A stretch of DNA of 8,755 nt from a virus (Duplodnaviria; Heunggongvirae; Uroviricota; Caudoviricetes). The stretch is from the IMG/VR virus record IMGVR_UViG_2703718800_000013, positions 1-8,755 of that record. One strand, given 5' to 3'. Below are positions 1 to 8,755 of the stretch, piece by piece. Numbering within the stretch: the stretch's first letter is position 1; each line of letters begins with the position of its first letter. Under the pieces are notes generated by a model. It did not search any database, had not been told where the DNA came from, and saw only the letters and a program-made list of their open reading frames with translations. The position numbers were made by a program, and so were the translations under genes.

Positions 1-1
1 C

Positions 2-1024
2 CAGCGCCTGCCCGGTTCGCAGCCGGGCGTGAATGAAACCACCCTGAATGCCATTGCGTATGCACAGGCGGGGCTGTCAGCACAGGAGCATGAACATCTG
101 GCCTGGATCTCCCGGCAGATAATTCCGACAGAAGCTGATGAAGCCGAACTCCTGAAACACTGCGCATTCTGGGGTGTCATCCGTAAACCGGCTTCCCGCG
201 CTGACGGACCGGTACAACTGATGCTGACCACGGATGCAGGGATCACGGAAGGCGTACTCCTTCAGCGAAGCGATGGTGTTGTGTACCGCATCACTGGCTC
301 TGCGACCGGAAAAGCCGGAACACTGAATGTTAATGTGGAGGCGGAAAGTGCGGGGCGCGCCGGAAATACCCCGACCGGAACCCGCCTGTCCTTTATCACA
401 CCACAGGCGGGCATCAACCAGACAGCCACGGTCACCGGCACGGGACTCACCGGTGGTGCGGATGTGGAAACGGTGCCGGAGTTGCTGTCCAGGCTGGTAT
501 TCCGGGTACAGAACCCGCCATCAGGGGGAACACAGTATGATTTTGAACGCTGGGCACGGGAAGTACCTGGCGTGACGCGGGCATGGTGTAAGCCTGAATG
601 GCCTGAGGCTGGTAGTGTTGGTGTGACTTTTGTTCAGGATAATAACCCTGACATTTTCCCCGGGGAAGGTGATGTGAAGCGGGTGGCGGATTATATCCGC
701 AGTCATGATGATCCGGCGACGGGCCAGCCCGTTGGTCAGCCACTTGGGCCGACAATCAGCGTGTTTAAGCTGACCAATAAGCCGGTGGTGTTTGAGATAA
801 GGATTGTACCCAAAACGCCGGAAAATCAGGCTGCCGTAAAACAGGCATTAACGGACCTGCTTTATAACGAATCGCGGCCGGGTGGACTTGTATTGCCTTC
901 ATCATTCTGGCGGGCTGTTGCAGGGGTGAAAGGACTGGAGGATTTTGAAGTTCGCAGCCCGCTGAAGTCCGTGATGGCCGGAGATACAGAGTTGCTGACC
1001 GTGGGGGAAATCACATGGCTGTAA
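2..1024 (+). CDS. Baseplate J-like protein (Mu gp47 / P2 gpJ family), probably 5'-partial
   Basis: Long ORF ending TAA at 1022-1024. The first in-window start is GTG at 29, but the frame stays open back to position 2, so the true start may lie upstream of the window. Family assignment rests mainly on gene order (immediately upstream of a DUF2313-like gene and the tail fibre) plus recalled resemblance; not verified by search. Confidence 0.6.
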   Translation, partial: QRLPGSQPGVNETTLNAIAYAQAGLSAQEHEHLAWISRQIIPTEADEAELLKHCAFWGVIRKPASRADGPVQLMLTTDAGITEGVLLQRSDGVVYRITGSATGKAGTLNVNVEAESAGRAGNTPTGTRLSFITPQAGINQTATVTGTGLTGGADVETVPELLSRLVFRVQNPPSGGTQYDFERWAREVPGVTRAWCKPEWPEAGSVGVTFVQDNNPDIFPGEGDVKRVADYIRSHDDPATGQPVGQPLGPTISVFKLTNKPVVFEIRIVPKTPENQAAVKQALTDLLYNESRPGGLVLPSSFWRAVAGVKGLEDFEVRSPLKSVMAGDTELLTVGEITWL

Positions 1025-1572
1025 CCCTGACCCCGCATCAGCGCGCCCTGTTGCAGTTGCTGCCTGACGGGCTGGTATGGGATAAGCGGCCGTCATCCGT
1101 TCTTGCGGCTTTGTGCCTGGGCCTCAGTCATTCCACGGAGCGTGTTTCCTGGACCGGCAACCAGATGCTGGCAGAACGTTTTCCTGATTCATCCCGTCTG
1201 CTGCTGGAAGACTGGGAGCGTTATCTGGGGTTACCGGAATGTGATATGACCGGCGCAACCATTCAGGAGCGTCAGCGTTATGCCGGGAATAAATACCGGA
1301 TGAAACCCTCTCTTAACCGTGAATTTTATATCCGGTTTGCGGCAGAGTTTGGTTATGAAATAGATATCCAGCCATCACCGGAATCACAATGGATCAGTAT
1401 TGTGACAGTGAAGACAGCGGTTGGATACCGTCACATGAATGTACTGGACGATATTCTTACGCCACTGCGAATTTATGATGCAAGTGCGCTGGAGTGCATT
1501 TTAAACCGTTATAAGCCAGCCTGGCAGACGTTTTTATATCTGTACGAAAACAGTCATGAGGAGACGGAGTGA
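1015..1572 (+). CDS. Phage tail/baseplate protein, Mu gp48 / YmfQ-like (DUF2313 family)
   Basis: 185-aa ORF. Its ATG at 1015 overlaps the upstream stop (ATGGCTGTAA), suggesting translational coupling. Size and position between the baseplate J-like gene and the tail fibre match the Mu-type late operon. Confidence 0.6.
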   Translation: MAVTLTPHQRALLQLLPDGLVWDKRPSSVLAALCLGLSHSTERVSWTGNQMLAERFPDSSRLLLEDWERYLGLPECDMTGATIQERQRYAGNKYRMKPSLNREFYIRFAAEFGYEIDIQPSPESQWISIVTVKTAVGYRHMNVLDDILTPLRIYDASALECILNRYKPAWQTFLYLYENSHEETE

Positions 1573-2468
1573 TGTATTTTGTCGACAACAATTCAGGTGT
1601 GACCGATATGCCACCACTGGCCCCCTCACAGGGCACGCAGGTTAAATGGTTTACTGAAGGTGACGGACGCAAAGGGATCAGCCATATAGGTCAGGACTGG
1701 CTGAACATCGTGCAGGCAGAGCTGCTTGCCATTCTGACAGAAGGACAGGTTCAGCCGGATAAGGCAAAACTGAACCAGCTGGTGATAGCCATTAAGGCAA
1801 TCATTGCAGCAAACGCATACAGCCGGAAAAACAACCTTAAGGAGATTGCGGATGCAGGTGCAGAAGCACAGGCTGCTGCCCGCCGTCATCTTGGGCTTGG
1901 AGGATTATCAGGAAAAGACAGCCTGGCTGCTAATGATGTGGGAGCACTGGAGAAATCCATGAATTTTGGCGATGTACCGGATAAAACCTCGGCCCGCCAG
2001 AATCTGGATGTTTACAGCAAGAGCGAAGGTGATAACCGTTATCTGCGCAAGGATCAGAATGGCGCGGATATCGCGGACAAAGGAACCTTTATCGATAACG
2101 TCGGTTTACGGGAAACGGTAAATAAGGCGGCGAATGCCCTGCCATCGGACGGCACCGCTGCGGCAGCGAATAAACTCGCCACCCCAAGAAATATTAATGG
2201 TGTTCCTTTCGACGGGACGCAGGATATCAGCATTACTTCAGGGATGACGGAATCAACAGCCAATCAGCGTTATGTTACAGGGGTAAGACTGGGAGCGCAG
2301 GCATTAAGCGGCGGACTGGAATATAATTACTCCCTGTCATCAGGAAATGTGATTACCGGTTTTAAGACTGACGGAGACTGGGAAATGCGTAGTGGTGATG
2401 ACCGTGTTTATTACAGACAGATACAATATTGTATTAATGGGAATTGGGTATCCGCTGCAAGTATTTAA
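1569..2468 (+). CDS. Tail fibre protein (Mu S-like), current orientation; constant N-terminal part plus invertible C-terminal part
   Basis: 299-aa ORF. The likely start is ATG at 1572, preceded by GAGGAG at 1558-1563 (GTG at 1569 is the first in-frame start). The N-terminus (MYFVDNNSGVTDMPPL...WFTEGDG) resembles the conserved phage tail-fibre N-terminal domain. Codon GTC 2100-2102 carries the recombination core, and the C-terminal ~72 aa differ from the alternative cassette on the minus strand. Confidence 0.85.
   Translation: MMYFVDNNSGVTDMPPLAPSQGTQVKWFTEGDGRKGISHIGQDWLNIVQAELLAILTEGQVQPDKAKLNQLVIAIKAIIAANAYSRKNNLKEIADAGAEAQAAARRHLGLGGLSGKDSLAANDVGALEKSMNFGDVPDKTSARQNLDVYSKSEGDNRYLRKDQNGADIADKGTFIDNVGLRETVNKAANALPSDGTAAAANKLATPRNINGVPFDGTQDISITSGMTESTANQRYVTGVRLGAQALSGGLEYNYSLSSGNVITGFKTDGDWEMRSGDDRVYYRQIQYCINGNWVSAASI
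2089..2114. promoter_or_regulatory. Left crossover site for the DNA invertase (gix/hix-like 26-bp site)
   Basis: TTATCGATAACG-TC-GGTTTACGGGAA: two imperfect 12-bp half-sites around the core dinucleotide TC (2101-2102). It resembles recalled hix/gix sites, and inverted-repeat identity begins exactly at the core. Confidence 0.7.
2101..2249. repeat. Left arm of a perfect 149-bp inverted repeat flanking the invertible segment
   Basis: The reverse complement of 3379-3527 matches 2101-2249 in every block I compared by hand. The mirror-image ORFs in the track (2054..2263 minus and 3395..3580 plus share a 44-aa identical stretch) are a direct consequence. Confidence 0.95.
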
Positions 2469-2567
2469 TTAACGGCTCATGGCGTACGGCAGGCAGCGCC
2501 TGATATATGTGTTATCTCAGACAATCCCTGTCCGTATATAGCGATAGTATTATTCCTGTTTTTATCA

Positions 2568-3110
2568 TTGATTCACATGGTGATGTTTATGCAACTGATT
2601 AATGTTAAACGATATTACCCGGAAAACACCCTCTATGGTAATGATGTACAGTATTTTCAGAGTGAAGATGGTAAGGATTTCTACGAGTCCCTGCCATTAT
2701 TCACCAAAAAATATAAACTTTGTATAACACCTGACAGCGGCATTATCTGCTCAATATCACAGGACGCTTCGGCGCTGTATCCTGCGGGGTTCTCTGTGGT
2801 TGAAGTCGACGAACTCCCTGAAGGTGCTGATATTTCGGGTAACTGGAAGTTTGATAATGGCGTGATCTCCCGTATTCCGGTTAACTACGCAAGAAAACTG
2901 GAAGCAATGCGCCAGTTATATCTTAATCAGGCATATGAAAAAATTAATGACTGGAGAACAGAATTACAGCTGGGCACCATCAGTGATGAAGACAGAGCCG
3001 CACTTACCCGATGGATGGCATACATCAGTCAGGTGAAAAAAATGGAACCATCCGCCATTAAAACTGAAGCTGAATTTGATGCCATTAAATGGCCCGAACA
3101 GCCTGAATAA
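2568..3110 (+). CDS. Tail fibre assembly protein (Mu U / Tfa family chaperone)
   Basis: 180-aa ORF with several possible starts (TTG 2568; ATG 2577, 2583, 2589). Blocks SEDGKDFYE, DASALYPAGFSVVEV and a C-terminal WPEQPE match the recalled pattern of Mu U/Tfa proteins. Confidence 0.8.
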   Translation: MIHMVMFMQLINVKRYYPENTLYGNDVQYFQSEDGKDFYESLPLFTKKYKLCITPDSGIICSISQDASALYPAGFSVVEVDELPEGADISGNWKFDNGVISRIPVNYARKLEAMRQLYLNQAYEKINDWRTELQLGTISDEDRAALTRWMAYISQVKKMEPSAIKTEAEFDAIKWPEQPE

Positions 3111-3113
3111 CTT

Positions 3114-3143
3114 AAAGGGTGCTTATCGCACCCTTTTTCTTTC
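3114..3143. terminator. Intrinsic terminator between tfa and the minus-strand cassette, possibly bidirectional
   Basis: AAAGGGTGC (3114-3122), loop TTATC, GCACCCTTT (3128-3136), then TTTTTCTTTC on the + strand. It sits 3 bp after the tfa stop and ends just before the minus-strand cassette stop at 3145-3147. Confidence 0.6.
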
Positions 3144-3144
3144 A

Positions 3145-3527
3145 TCAGACAGATGAAACTGTACGCCATGCATTACTGATATATATCTGCACAGGACGGA
3201 AATAAACCCCGCCAATGTTATCGGCAGAGTTTTTTCCTGTTTCCTGCACGTTAATACCGGAAAGCATACAACCGGAAGGCGCACTGTAATTCCATGACAT
3301 TTCATTGCCTCCGGGTGAATGATAGCTCTGTGCTCCAAGCTGAACGTTCTGTACATACCGGTCATCTGCGGTTGACTGCGTCATCCCTGAAGTAATGCTG
3401 ATATCCTGCGTCCCGTCGAAAGGAACACCATTAATATTTCTTGGGGTGGCGAGTTTATTCGCTGCCGCAGCGGTGCCGTCCGATGGCAGGGCATTCGCCG
3501 CCTTATTTACCGTTTCCCGTAAACCGA
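3145..3527 (-). CDS. Alternative tail-fibre C-terminal cassette (Sv'-like), silent in this orientation
   Basis: The minus-strand frame is open from the core at 3526-3527 through the inverted repeat (encoding the same 49 aa as the + copy) into a distinct ~77-aa C-terminus (MTQSTADDRYVQNVQLGAQ...), which parallels the + copy (MTESTANQRYVTGVRLGAQ...). It has no start codon or RBS of its own at its 5' end. Confidence 0.75.
3379..3527. repeat. Right arm of the perfect 149-bp inverted repeat
   Basis: Reverse complement of 2101-2249. Confidence 0.95.
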
Positions 3528-3539
3528 GGTTTCAGGGAT
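3514..3539. promoter_or_regulatory. Right crossover site for the DNA invertase (gix/hix-like)
   Basis: TTCCCGTAAACC-GA-GGTTTCAGGGAT, with core GA (3526-3527) that is the inverse of the left-site core TC. The inner half-site equals the reverse complement of the left site's inner half-site. It lies directly upstream of the invertase gene, as gixR does relative to gin. Confidence 0.7.
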
Positions 3540-3593
3540 GCCGTATATCTGCTTTAAAAGGCCTTTCCACCTCTTTTTAAGGAAGGTAAATAC

Positions 3594-4154
3594 ATGCTGA
3601 TTGGCTATATACGCGTATCAACAAATGACCAGAACACAGGTTTACAAAGAAATGCGCTGGAATGTGCAGGATGTGAGCAGATTTTTGAAGATAAAATGAG
3701 CGGAAAAACAACACAGCGGCCGGGACTGAAGCGGGCACTGAAGAAACTAAAACCCGGTGACACGCTGATGGTCTGGAAACTGGACAGGCTGGGGCGCAGT
3801 ATGCGCCACCTTGTTGCGCTGACAGATGAATTACAGCAACAGGGGATAAATTTTCGTAGTCTTACTGACAGCATTGATACGTCAACCCCCATGGGGCGCT
3901 TCTTTTTTCACATAATGGGTGCGCTGGCAGAAATGGAGCGTGAATTGATTGTCGAACGGACACGGGCTGGTCTTGCAGCTGCCCGTGAAAGGGGACGAAC
4001 CGGCGGCAGACCCCGTCGTCTCACGCAGGAACAATACGAGCAGGTCGGGCGTTTACTGGCCGGGGGTGTCAGCCGAAGACAGGCGGCACTTATTTTTGAT
4101 ATCGGCCTTTCAACCCTTTATCGTTATTTTCCTGCGAGCGTTTCGGAAAAATAA
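3594..4154 (+). CDS. gin: Serine-recombinase DNA invertase (Gin/Pin/Cin/Hin family)
   Basis: 186-aa ORF with RBS AAGGAAGG upstream. The N-terminus MLIGYIRVSTNDQNT carries the catalytic Ser, and a C-terminal helix-turn-helix region is present. The protein is near-collinear with Mu Gin as I recall it, and its position next to the invertible segment fits. Confidence 0.95.
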   Translation: MLIGYIRVSTNDQNTGLQRNALECAGCEQIFEDKMSGKTTQRPGLKRALKKLKPGDTLMVWKLDRLGRSMRHLVALTDELQQQGINFRSLTDSIDTSTPMGRFFFHIMGALAEMERELIVERTRAGLAAARERGRTGGRPRRLTQEQYEQVGRLLAGGVSRRQAALIFDIGLSTLYRYFPASVSEK

Positions 4155-4244
4155 GACGCTCCCTTTGTTGGGCCTTTACTGAATTAACGCAAAATGGCGT
4201 TTATCGGTCTGTGGATATGATAATTCTGTTTATTCAGGAACAGG

Positions 4245-6326
4245 ATGAATATTATGACGTCCAAATGGGTTCAACTATCATCAATGCCCGGAAACTTTAC
4301 CGTTAAAGTTTCCGGTGGTACAGCGGCATTTCTTGAGGCTCCCTTTCCTCCGGCTGAAACGAAAGGAGGTATGACATTTGCTGACTGTCTCATCAGTTTT
4401 AATACACGGGATTGCCTGTGGGTAAGGCCAGTATCCGGTGATCCGAACGTGGAAATTACCGGAGCGGGTATTGGTGCTGTCATTCCGTTAAGTGCTGATG
4501 TTGCCGGTACTACTGAACCGTCAGACTGGAACAATGCGGAAACATACACTTCCTCAGCAGGAGATAAAGTTGCAGGTCAAACTCCGTCCTGGTATTACGT
4601 GGTTGTTATTGCTGGTCAGTCGAATGCATCGTCATTTGGTGAAGGTCTTCCTTTGCCTGATACCTATGATCGACCTGATCCACGTATTAAACAGCTGGCT
4701 CGCCGTAACACGGTTACACCTGGCGGGGTTGAATGCGCCTACAACGATATAATTCCGGCAGATCACTGTCTTCATGATGTGCTGGATATGAGTAACCATA
4801 ATCATCCAAAAGCAGATCTTTCAAAAGGTCAGTATGGTTGTGTCGGCCAGGGTTTGCATATTGCAAAAAAACTCCTGCCCTTTATCCCGGAAGAGGCTGG
4901 TATCCTTCTGGTTCCCTGTGCCAGAGGAGGCTCTGCATTTACCGATGGTGCTGATGGTGAATTTACTGAAGCTTCCGGAGCAACATCTGCATCATCGCGC
5001 TGGGGAGTCAATAAACCTTTGTTCAGCGATCTTGTTAACCGAACAAAAGCGGCTCTCAGCAGTAACCCCAGAAATATTCTCCTGTCCGTTGTCTGGATGC
5101 AGGGCGAGAATGATCTGAAAACAGGAAAACATGCTGAACATTCCGGTCTGTTTGTGACGATGGTCGAAACATTCAGGCGTGAACTTTCGGCTTTTTCTGC
5201 GCAATCTCCAGCCGGAGATATGGCTTCTGTACCGTGGATCTGTGGTGATACGACGTATTACTGGAAAAATACATATCCAGAACAATACAAAGCTGTTTAT
5301 GGCAAATATGCTAATGAAGCAAAGAACATTCACTTTGTTCCATTTGTTGTGGATGAAAATGGAAAAAATGTACCGACAAATAATCCAGATGAAGACCCGG
5401 ATATTCCAGGTATTGGCTATTATGGTGCCATAAGTCGCGATTCGACTAACTGGACATCAAACGACAGGGCAAGCCATTTCAGTTCATGGGCGCGCCGTGG
5501 AATTATTTCAGACCGTCTGGCAACAGCGATTCTGACATTGTCAGGACAAAAATCTGCTTTCTTCCGCGGTGTAACGGCAACAGAACATTCTGATACCGGT
5601 AAGAGTGAGCCTGAACCCACCGGGGATGTGAAGGACGTGAGCGATCAGATGAAGATCATCGTTTCGTATACTGCAAACGCCCCGACAGAACCAATGAAAG
5701 ATCAGGGGTGGAATGCGGCTTCCGGAAAAGCAACCTTTGTCACGGATGCTGCTGCAACAGGTGGTAACAAAGCGTTAAGGGTGAATAAAGCGCCTAACAG
5801 CATGGCCTCATGGAAAATGTATCATCCGATCACAGCTGATAATGCCAGGGATTTGTTCGCCAGAGGTGGTGATATTTCCCTCCGTTTCAAAATTCCATCG
5901 GATGCGGGCATTGCGGAAAACCGGTATGGTGTTGGTATTTACTGGGCTGTAAGTAACTGGCCTGACGGTGACGGAAAAAATAACCTCATCGCATCATGTT
6001 TCCTGCAAACGGATTCAGCTAACCTGAATGTGATGTATCACAAAGGGAGCGGAAGTCAACAGATAGGATCGTATGGTGTCTTTGATCATGAATGGCATAC
6101 GCTCTCGTTACGGTTTGCAGGTGGTAATAGCATGAGTGTTACCCCAGTTCTGGACGGGAAAGATGGTGAACCATTTGAACTTGTGAAGTGGGTGAATGCC
6201 GGGTTCACGGTGGATCAACTGACACTGACCGATATTACCGGCAATGCAGCCACTTACCCGATGTTGTTTGACACAATTAAAGTGCAGGTTAACGATGCGG
6301 TCTCTTCGTCTAATGTGAATAAATGA
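4245..6326 (+). CDS. SASA/SGNH-family carbohydrate esterase (sialate O-acetylesterase-like; NanS-p-like) with an N-terminal extension and a C-terminal lectin-like domain
   Basis: 693-aa ORF. The GQSN nucleophile motif is encoded at nt 4614-4625, a QGEND block at about 5099-5113, and a downstream D-x3-H (SNDRASHF) follows, the three signature blocks of SASA-type esterases. The ~250-aa C-terminal region looks like a beta-sandwich carbohydrate-binding domain (inference). An alternative start is ATG at 4254. Confidence 0.75.
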   Translation: MNIMTSKWVQLSSMPGNFTVKVSGGTAAFLEAPFPPAETKGGMTFADCLISFNTRDCLWVRPVSGDPNVEITGAGIGAVIPLSADVAGTTEPSDWNNAETYTSSAGDKVAGQTPSWYYVVVIAGQSNASSFGEGLPLPDTYDRPDPRIKQLARRNTVTPGGVECAYNDIIPADHCLHDVLDMSNHNHPKADLSKGQYGCVGQGLHIAKKLLPFIPEEAGILLVPCARGGSAFTDGADGEFTEASGATSASSRWGVNKPLFSDLVNRTKAALSSNPRNILLSVVWMQGENDLKTGKHAEHSGLFVTMVETFRRELSAFSAQSPAGDMASVPWICGDTTYYWKNTYPEQYKAVYGKYANEAKNIHFVPFVVDENGKNVPTNNPDEDPDIPGIGYYGAISRDSTNWTSNDRASHFSSWARRGIISDRLATAILTLSGQKSAFFRGVTATEHSDTGKSEPEPTGDVKDVSDQMKIIVSYTANAPTEPMKDQGWNAASGKATFVTDAAATGGNKALRVNKAPNSMASWKMYHPITADNARDLFARGGDISLRFKIPSDAGIAENRYGVGIYWAVSNWPDGDGKNNLIASCFLQTDSANLNVMYHKGSGSQQIGSYGVFDHEWHTLSLRFAGGNSMSVTPVLDGKDGEPFELVKWVNAGFTVDQLTLTDITGNAATYPMLFDTIKVQVNDAVSSSNVNK

Positions 6327-6355
6327 CGGGTAATTCATTTTATTTAAAATGGTGA

Positions 6356-6541
6356 GTGATTATGCCAATACTACATACATTTATGCTTTATTTTTGCACG
6401 TGTGTGTGTCTGCTTTATCTCCTCAGCGGAGGTTACAAAATTATCCGAAATTATTTTCGAAATAAAATTGATGCAGCCGCAGAGGAAAAGATAAAAAGCG
6501 GTGCTGTAATGCCGCAGCCGAAAGACTCCGGTCAGATTTAA
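6356..6541 (+). CDS. Hypothetical small protein with a hydrophobic N-terminus (questionable)
   Basis: 61-aa ORF in an A+T-rich intergenic-looking stretch with a weak RBS. The hydrophobic N-terminal 25 aa might be a membrane helix, but this could equally be a non-coding leader or promoter region. Confidence 0.25.
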   Translation: MIMPILHTFMLYFCTCVCLLYLLSGGYKIIRNYFRNKIDAAAEEKIKSGAVMPQPKDSGQI

Positions 6542-6576
6542 TTTTTTGTGAACCAGAAAAGGAAAGGAGAATATTC

Positions 6577-6822
6577 ATGCCAGAGATTAAAGGCACGGTT
6601 ACTGAAGAGCTTGTCAAACAGGCACTTTATTCTGAAGAAGTGAACCGCGTGCTGAAGGCGCAGGTTCGCAAGGATTTTGAGGCACAAATCGACGCATATG
6701 TTGATGAAGTGCTGGCCCGAATGGTTGGCCATTCTCCGGCTGAAAACAGCACGGAGAATGAGCCTCAGCCCGTAGAGCAACCAGAGCCGGTTCAGCCCGG
6801 AACTGACAGTGCCATGATGTAA
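6577..6822 (+). CDS. Hypothetical small acidic protein
   Basis: 81-aa ORF with a strong RBS (AAAGGAAAGGAGA, 7 nt before the ATG). It has a helical-looking N-terminal half and a Pro/Glu-rich tail. I do not recognise a family. Confidence 0.55.
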   Translation: MPEIKGTVTEELVKQALYSEEVNRVLKAQVRKDFEAQIDAYVDEVLARMVGHSPAENSTENEPQPVEQPEPVQPGTDSAMM

Positions 6823-6896
6823 CAATACAAACCGACAGCTTCTCCTGTCGGTTTGATTTTCATGGGCGATGTATATACCAGTCAGAGGAAATAATC

Positions 6897-7097
6897 ATGG
6901 ACAAGAACAAAAAGCAGCCCGATACCAAAGGTCTGGAAATATTAAGCGCAGAAATTATCAATGCGCTACGTTCAGGACTTGATGAAAATACATTACAGGA
7001 TCGAAACTTCACCACTGCAATGTGGATAGCGATGCAGATCCTGTGTACCCCAAGATGCGCTATTTTTGCGGTTCGTGAGGGTCAGTTGACTCGCTGA
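6897..7097 (+). CDS. Hypothetical small protein
   Basis: 66-aa ORF with RBS GAGGAA 7 nt upstream. No family recognised. Confidence 0.5.
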   Translation: MDKNKKQPDTKGLEILSAEIINALRSGLDENTLQDRNFTTAMWIAMQILCTPRCAIFAVREGQLTR

Positions 7098-7266
7098 TTG
7101 CCCGAATTACATCAGAAAAGCACGCGTTCCATAATTGCATAGCTGATGAATCACCAGCTGTATGAAAAGAGGTAAAGACACAACTGGTGGATGTCATTGC
7201 TGCAATTGTGATATCAGCTGCAATTCGCGCAGCCTGTAACTTTTGGTCGGTGGTCAGTTTATCCAT
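7060..7266 (-). CDS. Hypothetical small protein, convergent with and overlapping the 3' end of the 6897..7097 ORF
   Basis: The ORF track gives 7060..7290; an internal ATG at 7266 has a much better RBS (AGGAGAAA). Codon usage looks plausible, but no family is recognised and a + strand terminator downstream implies antisense read-through. Confidence 0.35.
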   Translation of the reverse strand: MDKLTTDQKLQAARIAADITIAAMTSTSCVFTSFHTAGDSSAMQLWNACFSDVIRAISESTDPHEPQK

Positions 7267-7380
7267 TTTCTCCTGCCTGAACAGATGCATCTCTGCTTTA
7301 CAGGAGGCCGGGGAATATCATAGGATACACCACGAGCTCAGAGTGAAGCATTGATGCAGTTTTTTACAGATTGACCCAGA

Positions 7381-7417
7381 ACCCAGCATAGTTCCAGCTA
7401 TGCTGGGTTTCCCTTTT
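7381..7417 (+). terminator. Rho-independent terminator (+ strand)
   Basis: Perfect 11-bp stem ACCCAGCATAG (7381-7391) / CTATGCTGGGT (7398-7408) with loop TTCCAG, followed by TTCCCTTTTAT. Confidence 0.55.
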
Positions 7418-7640
7418 ATGTAGTATCCTGTTGATTTGAAACATACTACATATACGCGCGATCCTACCTTCACTGGATAAAAAGGCAATAAAATGATCAT
7501 TTTATGATCGTTTTCACCACCTAACTCTTCGTTTTCTTTAAGTAAATAATCACCGCCCTGAATCATTGTTGATGACTTTTCAATCTATTTGTTGTATCAA
7601 TTAAACAAATCGAATCGATCGTTTTTGTCGATCGATTGCA
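7418..7640. promoter_or_regulatory. Candidate com-mom regulatory region with palindromes and clustered GATC sites
   Basis: A 9-bp inverted repeat ATGTAGTAT (7418-7426) / ATACTACAT (7443-7451). Five GATC sites at 7460, 7495, 7506, 7617 and 7630. A second palindrome AATCGATCG (7612-7620) / CGATCGATT (7628-7636) embeds two of them. A weak possible promoter is ATGACT (7573-7578), 16 bp, TATCAA (7595-7600). Confidence 0.4.
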
Positions 7641-7680
7641 TGAGAAAGGCATCAACAACAAAGCAGGAGGTTATGCGGCC

Positions 7681-7881
7681 ATGTATCGAAACATACGGTG
7701 CCGACACTGCAATAAGCTACTGGCACGGGCCAGTTTCAGTTATCTGGAAGTAAAATGTCCGCGCTGTAAAACCCTCAATCAAATCACATCTCCGAGCGCC
7801 ACAGAGCACCCCACATACACAAGGAAATCCTGTCGTGGGGAACAGAAAGCAAGTCACATCCCGTATCATCAGCACGCCTGA
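7681..7881 (+). CDS. com: Com, zinc-finger translational activator of mom
   Basis: 66-aa product [14 protein letters not shown]...KCPRCK with CxxC-x15-CxxC spacing like Mu Com. AGGAGG at 7665-7670 precedes the ATG at 7681; the track start at 7636 lacks an RBS. The 3' end overlaps the mom start. Confidence 0.8.
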
Positions 7882-8572
7882 ACTTATTCGCTATAACGAC
7901 AATATCGTTGGTTATGGCTCCCGTGAGTTGCGGGTTGAGACAATAAGTTGCTGGCTGGCCAGACTGGTCATCGTCAATAAACATTACAGCCACCGTTTCG
8001 TAAATAACTCCTACCTTCATCTGGGCATATTTTCAGAACGGGAACTTGTTGGCGTAATGCAATGGGGTTACGCCCTTAACCCAAACAGTGGTGCACGCGT
8101 CGTAACGGGTACGCAGAACCGAGAATATATGGAGCTTAACCGGCTATGGCTGCATGACTGTATGCCGAGAAACTCCGAATCAAGGGCAATCAGTTACGCG
8201 CTCAAGCTAATCAGGCAGCTTTATCCGCAGGTACAGTGGGTTCAGTCGTTTGCAGATGAGCGTTGTGGCTGTCTTGGTGTCGTGTATCAGGCAAGCAATT
8301 TTGATTATGTAGGCAGCCATGAAACAATATTCTATGAACTTGATGGCGAGTGGTATCACGAGATTTGCAGGAATGCCATTAAACGAGGCGGACAACGAGG
8401 TGAACATCTGAGGGCTAATATCGACAGAGCCAGTGTGCATAAGTTCCGACAGTTTCGTTACATCCGGTTTCTGAACAAGAGGGCCAGAAAACGCCTCAAC
8501 ACAAAGCTATTCAAAGTCCAGCCTTACCCAAAACCACAAACAGTTAAAACTGGTTTGAAAGAGAGTGAATGA
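7835..8572 (+). CDS. mom: Mom, DNA modification (adenine carbamoylmethylation) anti-restriction protein
   Basis: 245-aa ORF starting at GTG 7835, inside the 3' end of com in another frame; this is the com-mom arrangement of Mu. Its size and its position at the phage right end fit. The exact start codon is uncertain. Confidence 0.8.
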
Positions 8573-8602
8573 GCGCTTAAAAACTCATTCTAAAACTCAA
8601 AA

Positions 8603-8649
8603 GAAAAGCGCCGATTTAGTATCAAATAAGTTGCGTATCGGCGTTTTTC
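8603..8649. repeat. 13-bp imperfect inverted repeat downstream of mom (terminator-like or protein-binding)
   Basis: GAAAAGCGCCGAT (8603-8615) pairs with ATCGGCGTTTTTC (8637-8649) with one G-U equivalent, across a 21-nt spacer. It may be the mom terminator or paired end-binding sites. Confidence 0.3.
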
Positions 8650-8755
8650 ATCGGAATCAAATGAAATGCAAATCGGTATCAAAAAAATCGCCGCGCTATA
8701 TGATGCTTTGTTCCGTAGGGCAACATTACCCCGGTTTTGAAACGGATATTCACGG

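Follow-up and report, generated by a model that had tools for sequence, protein, structure and literature searches.

Invertible tail-fibre segments are a textbook form of phage bet-hedging on host range, and in the textbook layout each alternative fibre tip is provided with its own chaperone. The DNA analysed here (positions 1 to 8,755 of IMG/VR record IMGVR_UViG_2703718800_000013, hereafter referred to as the window; 8.7 kb) forms the right end of a Mu-like, Sp18-type Escherichia coli prophage and contains an invertible segment that encodes two alternative fibre tips, tip A and tip B, but only one tail-fibre assembly chaperone gene, tfa, raising the question of how a single chaperone can sustain both states of the switch. 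The reading that we favour, with a probability of roughly 0.6, is that the locus is a G-segment-type host-range switch reduced to one chaperone, in which a single generalist Tfa is transcribed regardless of the orientation of the segment. Documented below are the crossover sites, the natural inversion of the segment, the conservation of its layout and the selection acting on tip B and tfa, together with evidence that a layout fixed in the convergent arrangement is viable; the action of Tfa on both tips and the position of its promoter are inferred.

The machinery of the switch is readily recognizable. A Gin/Pin-type serine DNA invertase of 186 aa, encoded on the + strand outside the segment (3594-4154; Pfam Resolvase PF00239, E=3e-51; HTH_7 PF02796, E=8e-14), is 73% identical to Mu Gin and conserves the VSTNDQ serine motif, with the first 200 nt (5') of its gene, the part in which systems of this type have a Fis-dependent recombinational enhancer, aligning at high identity to Mu gin. 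An inverted repeat of 179 nt with 95% identity (2097-2275 versus 3353-3531) is perfect over 149 bp, its left arm (2101-2249) coding for the first ~50 aa common to both switched fibre parts and its right arm lying at 3379-3527; divergence between the arms begins at 2250. Two gix-like 26-mers are located at the outer ends of this repeat. The left site, within the fibre open reading frame (ORF) at 2089-2114 and with its central TC at 2101-2102, reads TTATCGATAACG TC GGTTTACGGGAA, and the right site, at 3514-3539 with its central GA at 3526-3527, reads ATCCCTGAAACC TC GGTTTACGGGAA in reverse complement. Mu's own gix sites, taken from AF083977 at the annotated G-segment boundaries, read TTATCCAAAACC TC GGTTTACAGGAA and share 22 of 26 bases with the sites reported here, which lie in inverted orientation with complementary central dinucleotides (TC/GA). 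The codons at which the left site falls (F-I-D/Q-N-V/L-G-L) are those where the G-segment boundary is annotated in Mu. Just two sites with at most three mismatches from the 17-nt core occur in the window and in each relative, and the multiple-inversion type of system with more than two crossover sites (p15B Min, shufflons) does not apply. Since the crossover sites lie at the outer repeat ends, the invertible DNA extends over approximately 2102-3526 (about 1,426 bp). The range 2250-3378, given as the invertible segment in the initial annotation, stands as the non-repeated core, the gix-like sites lying outside it. From left to right, the segment consists of a repeat arm, unique tip A, a 120-nt spacer, tfa and a hairpin, followed on the minus strand by unique tip B and the other arm.

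Some minor features of the repeat arms were also recorded. The base at window position 2100 (base 12 of the left site, in its outer half-site) is G in the window and in related loci L002, L004, L006 and L008, and C in L001, L005, L007 and L012, independently of orientation, while the right site always carries C; this variation could record imprecise exchange, or else gene conversion or mismatch repair acting between the arms. ORFs of 61-69 aa run antisense to the repeat arms (2054-2263 on the minus strand and 3395-3580 on the plus strand) and are probably by-products of the switch, and the unfused tips, which represent its unused halves, are readable from an internal ATG (e.g. 3145-3384, minus strand). 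In RefSeq relatives, these antisense ORFs and unfused tips are labelled as 'hypothetical' proteins or 'partial' fibre genes.

Both orientations of the segment yield an intact fibre, of 299 aa in the window and of 303 aa after in-silico flipping. In the window orientation, the tail-fibre gene (1569-2468, + strand) starts with a constant 5' part that lies outside the invertible DNA (1569-2101, + strand, aa 1-177; PHROG 1833 tail fibre, E=2e-119), and residues 2-198 of the fibre align to residues 1-190 of Mu S (PDB 5yvq_A, E=1e-64). The gene continues into switched part A (2102-2468, + strand, aa 178-299; 122 aa), which is of the Mu S type and carries the unique tip from 2250 onwards. Fibre residues 231-298 align to residues 436-503 of Mu S, corresponding to the Tfa-binding tip in PDB 5YVQ, and tip A is ~54% identical to the Mu S tip; the fibre as a whole constitutes a 'mini' Mu S from which the ~240-aa middle of Mu S is absent. 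Switched part B (3145-3526, minus strand; 127 aa, unique tip at 3145-3378) has no start codon of its own at the crossover site. Its tip is of the type found in SfMu gp52, P2-like H and the phiTE short fibre, with matches to 9cuy_c (E=5e-16) and Mu S (E=5e-7), and shares 60% identity with SfMu gp52, its closest phage-borne relative, and 56-59% with P2-like H. The two alternative C-termini proposed in the initial annotation, one ending at 2468 on the plus strand and the other at 3145 on the minus strand, are thereby confirmed, with unique parts of 72 aa for tip A and about 78 aa for tip B following the first ~50 aa of the switched parts, which are identical.

The sole chaperone gene, tfa (2589-3110, + strand), encodes a 173-aa homologue of Mu U that belongs by sequence to the Caudo_TAP/Mu U family (Pfam PF02413, E=4e-19; PHROG 136, E=2e-54; Mu U structure 5YVQ_B, E=6e-17 over residues 17-153). 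Its start is the ATG at 2589, which is the start assigned by PGAP in relatives, and not the TTG at 2568. The presence of one tfa on the plus strand, with no minus-strand ORF of comparable size between 2469 and 3144, had been noted from the sequence and holds: all minus-strand ORFs in this interval, listed down to 20 aa, are at most 46 aa long. The suggested search of the interval for short or frameshifted copies, run as a tblastn of nine Tfa proteins against the other frames and strands at a very lax threshold, returned noise only, revealing neither a second tfa nor a remnant of one. The stop codon of tip B lies 34 nt from that of tfa, and between these convergent stops a terminator scan identified a G+C-rich hairpin (3114-3136), terminator-like on the plus strand and with a weaker T-tract on the minus strand, that folds on both strands (z = -4.6 and -5.1). 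Loci L004 and L008, as well as Mu, have a hairpin with a different sequence in the same place.

In the mechanism that we propose, the Gin-like invertase would recombine the gix-like site within the fibre gene with its partner just upstream of the invertase gene, and the resulting flip of ~1,426 bp would join the constant 177-aa fibre body to either tip A or tip B. Both tips appear to be variants of a small Mu-S-type C-terminal domain bound by a Tfa protein, and the single Tfa would fold both of them. Because of its location within the invertible DNA, tfa points the same way as the late operon in the tip-A state only. In the tip-B state, which is the commoner of the two, tfa is convergent with the fibre gene and would need its own transcription, most probably from a late, activator-dependent promoter situated in the long spacer that travels with tfa, and the hairpin between tfa and tip B would separate the two convergent transcripts.

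Evidence for inversion in nature comes from the prophage of E. coli JNEC-KY203 (L001), which aligns collinearly with the window apart from 2097-3531, where the match runs in reverse at 99.65% identity. The repeat arms move with the segment, the left arm of L001 matching the right arm of the window with 0 mismatches, and the locus encodes an intact 303-aa fibre ending in tip B, with tfa on the opposite strand. L001 and the in-silico flip agree in joining the alternative tip to the constant body and in leaving tfa antisense, as had been predicted for the inverted state, and the occurrence of near-identical prophages in either orientation establishes that the segment does invert. A census of 5,426 complete E. 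coli genomes, requiring a match over at least 80% of the query, identified 187 genomes in the flipped orientation (tip B fused, tfa antisense) versus 23 in the window orientation, counts that include many clonal O157:H7 genomes and are not phylogenetically independent. Among IMG/VR loci the corresponding numbers are about 18 and 6, and both orientations occur within O157:H7. The tfa-antisense state appears, then, to be the usual state and not a rare one. The 187:23 bias could stem from a founder effect, with tip B as the E. coli-specific tip, from clonality, or from selection in lysogens. A Mu-like locus in CP066032.1 (PMC9881135), considered as long-read proof of flipping, was rejected as a classical two-tfa segment. 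A 'Mu prophage' of enteropathogenic E. coli E2348/69 has been reported to flip within cultures (PMC4272514); attempts to locate it for comparison with the present family did not find it.

These observations bear directly on a further option raised in the initial annotation, namely non-infectious particles in the flipped state. In its full form, the switch would be 'off' or defective in the tip-B orientation, with particles that lack fibres or are non-infectious, and only the tip-A state would be productive. This is the simplest reading of the map, tfa being antisense to the late operon in that state, but it is contradicted by the majority held by the tip-B state in the census, by the strong purifying selection and deep allelic diversity of tip B, and by a group of invertase-less prophages that are all fixed in the tip-B state, one of them complete and freshly inserted in flgL. 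We therefore consider a non-infectious flipped state highly improbable. A different and rather far-fetched explanation for the excess of tip B is that it reflects host-level selection, the unfused tip fragment and/or Tfa being made in the lysogen and acting at the cell surface, for example in receptor blocking against other phages. A conserved in-frame ATG could start both unfused tips (e.g. 3384, minus strand), and a similar effect has been reported for StfE2, generated by inversion of the e14 P segment (PMC12529663). If this were true, the free-standing tfa unit would belong to a switch that benefits the host in addition to changing the host range of the phage.

The one-chaperone layout is not peculiar to the window. 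A single tfa is present in at least 31 further IMG/VR loci and in the sampled genomes, where it accompanies three tip-A types, unrelated to one another, and two tip-B types, and it is shared by relatives at about 80-83% nucleotide identity, including those of the O157:H7 Sp18 type. The comparison with homologous segments of related prophages that had been recommended in the initial annotation recovers the single-tfa layout in all sampled members of the prophage lineage. Because these 31 loci and the more divergent relatives all keep a single tfa with varied tips, sequence comparison indicates that the layout is a conserved design and no product of accident or decay. Tip B, with a median ratio of nonsynonymous to synonymous substitution rates (dN/dS) of 0.10 over 32 allele pairs, is by this measure under strong purifying selection, its alleles being saturated at synonymous sites and conserved in protein sequence. 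The three types of tip-A cassette, by contrast, have hardly diverged at synonymous sites from one locus to another; each type comes with a spacer and first tfa codons of its own. This pattern suggests that the tip-A side has recently been exchanged as cassettes, and that the tip-B/tfa core is old.

An alternative account of the same layout is decay from a classical two-pair G segment: the second tfa would have been lost recently, and no adaptive design would lie behind what remains. Two-tfa segments with homologous Tfa do exist (L068, L077, L078, L090), and the 34-nt gap between the stops of tip B and tfa is as expected after clean loss of a second gene. Decay is nevertheless difficult to reconcile with a layout that is the same in all sampled lineage members despite about 20% nucleotide divergence and tip cassette exchange, with the lack of any tfa remnant in the searches described above, and with tips and tfa that are intact and under selection, frameshifts being confined to isolated loci (L014, L019). 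The probability that we would assign to it is very small.

The group of invertase-less prophages provides a natural instance of the convergent layout in fixed form. They derive from one common deletion, present in seven IMG/VR loci and in at least six complete genomes (CI5, M1, M3, M18, JE86-ST02 and S1-CAM-01-A), that eliminated the right site together with tip A and left only ~40 nt of the invertase gene, keeping the spacer and tfa. The fibre gene with tip B is hence permanently convergent with tfa (L022, 3691-4010; L091, from E. coli M3, 6200-7950). These loci contain five distinct intact tfa alleles, with dN/dS of 0.10-0.23, and two tip-B types, and in E. coli M3 the whole 38-kb prophage is complete, contains no pseudogene and splits flgL. 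The persistence of this fixed derivative, intact, in a complete prophage means that a tip-B fibre with convergent tfa is viable and that tfa is kept without tip A.

That one Tfa may suffice for both tips is further suggested by the company that B-type tips keep in other phages. In SfMu and P2-like phages, their own tfa begins 2-3 nt past the stop of the B-type tip, and outside the present family B-type tips are always accompanied by an adjacent tfa. The chaperone of the B-like tip in SfMu, gp51, shares 91% identity with Mu U, the partner of the A-like Mu S tip; in nature, then, both types of tip are found alongside what is essentially one Tfa sequence. In the present family, too, a given Tfa allele can be combined with different tips. 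Taken as comparative evidence, these pairings point to Tfa as a generalist chaperone serving both tips, and from the homology to the Mu S-U complex, together with the retention of tfa in the tip-B-only derivative, Tfa is predicted to bind its fibre tip and to be required for the folding of that tip. The proposal that the alternative tip folds without a dedicated chaperone can be upheld only in the sense that a single Tfa is shared, since B-type tips elsewhere keep an adjacent tfa. In a stricter version of that proposal, Tfa would serve tip A alone, and tip B would either fold unaided or borrow the Tfa of another resident prophage. Tip B does lack a co-oriented chaperone, the tips are short (about 75 aa), and Shiga toxin-producing E. 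coli (STEC) strains hold many lambdoid prophages with tfa genes. However, the invariable tfa next to SfMu/P2-like B-type tips and the intact tfa, in five alleles, of a derivative that lacks tip A and is otherwise a complete prophage both speak against such a restriction, and reliance on other prophages would not carry over to new hosts. A Tfa dedicated to tip A is for these reasons improbable.

If a generalist Tfa is to act in both states, its gene must be expressed in both, and attention turns to the non-coding spacer of 120 nt that separates the stop of tip A from the ATG of tfa (2469-2588, + strand), which is a candidate location for an orientation-independent tfa promoter. The last ~50 nt of this spacer, including TATCAT at 2563-2568 and the Shine-Dalgarno sequence GGTGAT at 2579-2584, are invariant in all type-1 relatives. 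The interval between the tip A stop and tfa measures 51, 79 or 120-121 nt in every one-tfa locus, versus 4-17 nt in the conventional contexts of homologous Tfa proteins (about 45, 53-61% identical, either co-oriented or in two-tfa segments) and 2-5 nt in Mu, SfMu and one P2-like phage. Three spacer types can be distinguished, two of which have AAAACAGATT in common. Long spacers being confined to one-tfa segments, they are most naturally read as carrying the requirements of an independent transcription unit. Of the options listed in the initial annotation, the intact tfa of the fixed derivative and the long spacers of one-tfa segments favour a tfa gene with a promoter of its own that is active in either orientation, although the scans did not pinpoint the promoter itself.

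Mu has four known late promoters, which share the box CATAAYCCC; this box is absent here. Within the present prophage family, the lysozyme and protease (I) genes are preceded by a shared TTCTGAWRTYCCGCAAANCCYGCC-N15-TAYGCT (Plys and PI; L091 at about 30067 and 21879, minus strand; also in L093 and L094), which presumably marks the family's late promoters with their activator site and is unlike the CATAAYCCC box of Mu. The exact pattern matches at Plys and PI alone. Comparison of the spacer with the com/mom upstream region revealed no common word, and a search of the spacers for an RNA element yielded folding z values of about 0 and no Rfam match.

Several points weigh against the combination of a generalist Tfa and a spacer-borne promoter. 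No sigma-70 promoter above background was found in any spacer type in a consensus scan, and a weight-matrix scan of the 160 and 300 nt upstream of tfa in six loci gave background scores with one exception. The lack of a sigma-70 match is compatible with an activator-dependent late promoter, because Mu late promoters are devoid of -35 elements (PMC2582627). A relaxed version of the Plys/PI composite does match the window spacer at 2522, but this match is not kept in L004 or L091 and is weak, the pattern having been tuned after the spacer was seen and its CTGATAT word occurring four times within 2000-3600. The exception in the weight-matrix scan is a near-consensus ATGATA-17-TATAAT at the deletion junction of the invertase-less variant, 123 nt upstream of tfa; this variant may therefore drive tfa differently, and constitutes weaker evidence on the spacer. 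Its evidence for a need of Tfa with tip B is left unweakened by the junction element. The range of tfa alleles in the fixed variant could reflect import by recombination instead of accumulation in place, the action of Tfa on tip B is a prediction from comparative data, and the non-independence of the census counts noted above adds to these reservations.

The same scans bear on a variant explanation, in which tfa is also expressed independently of orientation but its transcript begins outside the spacer, either in the 3' coding DNA of tip A or at a promoter that reads leftward from the invertase side of the right site. Tip A contains two promoter-like elements, ATGACC-18-TACAAT at 2398-2427 and CAGGCA-18-TATAAT 261 nt upstream of tfa, and the invertase-less variant, from which tip A is gone, has its TATAAT junction element at a similar distance. 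The tip-A matches, however, do not exceed what a scan of this much sequence would be expected to produce, no minus-strand promoter-like site is present within 3527-3700, and the fixed variant keeps tfa intact without the right site and the invertase 5' region. A start outside the spacer would also leave unexplained why only one-tfa segments have long spacers, and we regard it as unlikely, though deserving of consideration.

The remainder of the window is consistent with its position at the right end of a Mu-like prophage. Upstream of the fibre gene lie the genes for baseplate J/gp47 (29-1024) and gp48/YmfQ (1015-1572). Downstream of the invertase gene, a cargo region between invertase and com/mom without counterpart in Mu and SfMu (4245-6822) comprises the gene for a 693-aa SASA-esterase/DUF6645 protein (4245-6326; PHROG 143), a small DUF1378-like ORF (6356-6541) and the gene for a DUF826 protein (6577-6822), and these families are typical of STEC prophages. 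The com (ATG at 7681) and mom genes close the order after the DUF826 gene. L001 carries an extra 72 nt with respect to the window between the DUF826 gene and com (window 7381/7382; L001 10812/10885). Clustered GATC sites (CGATCG...TCGATCG) in the region 5' of com (window 7600-7681) resemble the Dam/OxyR-controlled Mu Pmom region, and this same region does not contain Mu's TTATGCCCCAATAA activator site. Prophages 97-99% identical to the window are present in several complete E. coli genomes, and a query with Tfa against GTDB, at one genome per species, returned zero relatives. The prophage lineage is already known, and members of the Sp18-type lineage package DNA and form Mu-like particles (PMC2669165). 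No discussion of the single, orientation-mismatched chaperone, or of what follows from it, was found in the literature searchable.

The lineage is widespread in E. coli, O157:H7 Sp18 included, and its layout implies that the pairing of tip and chaperone is dispensable: one Tfa apparently serves interchangeable receptor-binding tips of ~75 aa, even when encoded convergently to the fibre gene. A separate tfa transcription unit, opposite to the late operon in the commoner state, would then be implied in a Mu-like phage. If confirmed, this would provide a Tfa that is promiscuous by nature as well as a minimal tip cassette, both of use for engineering the host range of phages or tailocins. The locus, with its locked variants, offers a simple natural system for the study of Tfa specificity and dosage. 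It also calls for caution in annotation, where the 'partial' fibre genes and 'hypothetical' ORFs of this region are halves of a functional switch.

Comparison with known systems places the locus among the invertible tail-fibre switches of the Mu G, P1 C and e14 P type, with which it shares the invertase, the crossover sites, constant and variable fibre parts and the existence of both orientations. The classical feature of two tip-chaperone pairs is replaced here by one tfa, located 120 nt from tip A and convergent with tip B. The closest parallel is the Mu G segment with Gin (S-U / U'-S'). The two loci have the same gene order (gp47, gp48, fibre, segment, invertase, com, mom), homologous 26-bp sites at the same fibre codons, closely related invertases (73% identity), a fibre N-terminus and tip A homologous to Mu S, a Tfa homologous to U, and a hairpin between convergent genes. 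They differ in the number of tfa genes (one versus two in Mu), in the length of the segment (1.4 kb versus 3.0 kb) and of the switched fibre parts (122-127 aa versus 320-340 aa), in the 149-bp repeat found inside the segment here, in the spacer preceding tfa (120 nt versus 2-5 nt), and in the SASA/DUF6645, DUF1378-like and DUF826 cargo between invertase and com. SfMu (gp49-gp52, Gin) has a Mu-like switch whose alternative tip, gp52, is 60% identical to tip B; in SfMu, however, this tip has its own tfa (gp51) 2 nt downstream, which is absent here. Sp18 of O157:H7 Sakai (L006) and its relatives belong to the same lineage, at about 82% nucleotide identity, and have the same one-tfa layout, with another tip-A cassette and a 79-nt spacer. 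The P1 C segment with Cin and the e14 P segment with Pin also switch tail-fibre C-termini by means of a serine invertase, and the P1 C segment has long inverted repeats inside the segment with crossover sites at their outer ends, as here. Both contain two fibre-tip/tfa pairs, which in the e14 P segment are stfP-tfaP and tfaE-stfE (PMC12529663), in contrast to the one tfa of the present locus. The locus thus represents no new class of system, but a real, conserved and mechanistically interesting variant of the invertible tail-fibre switch.

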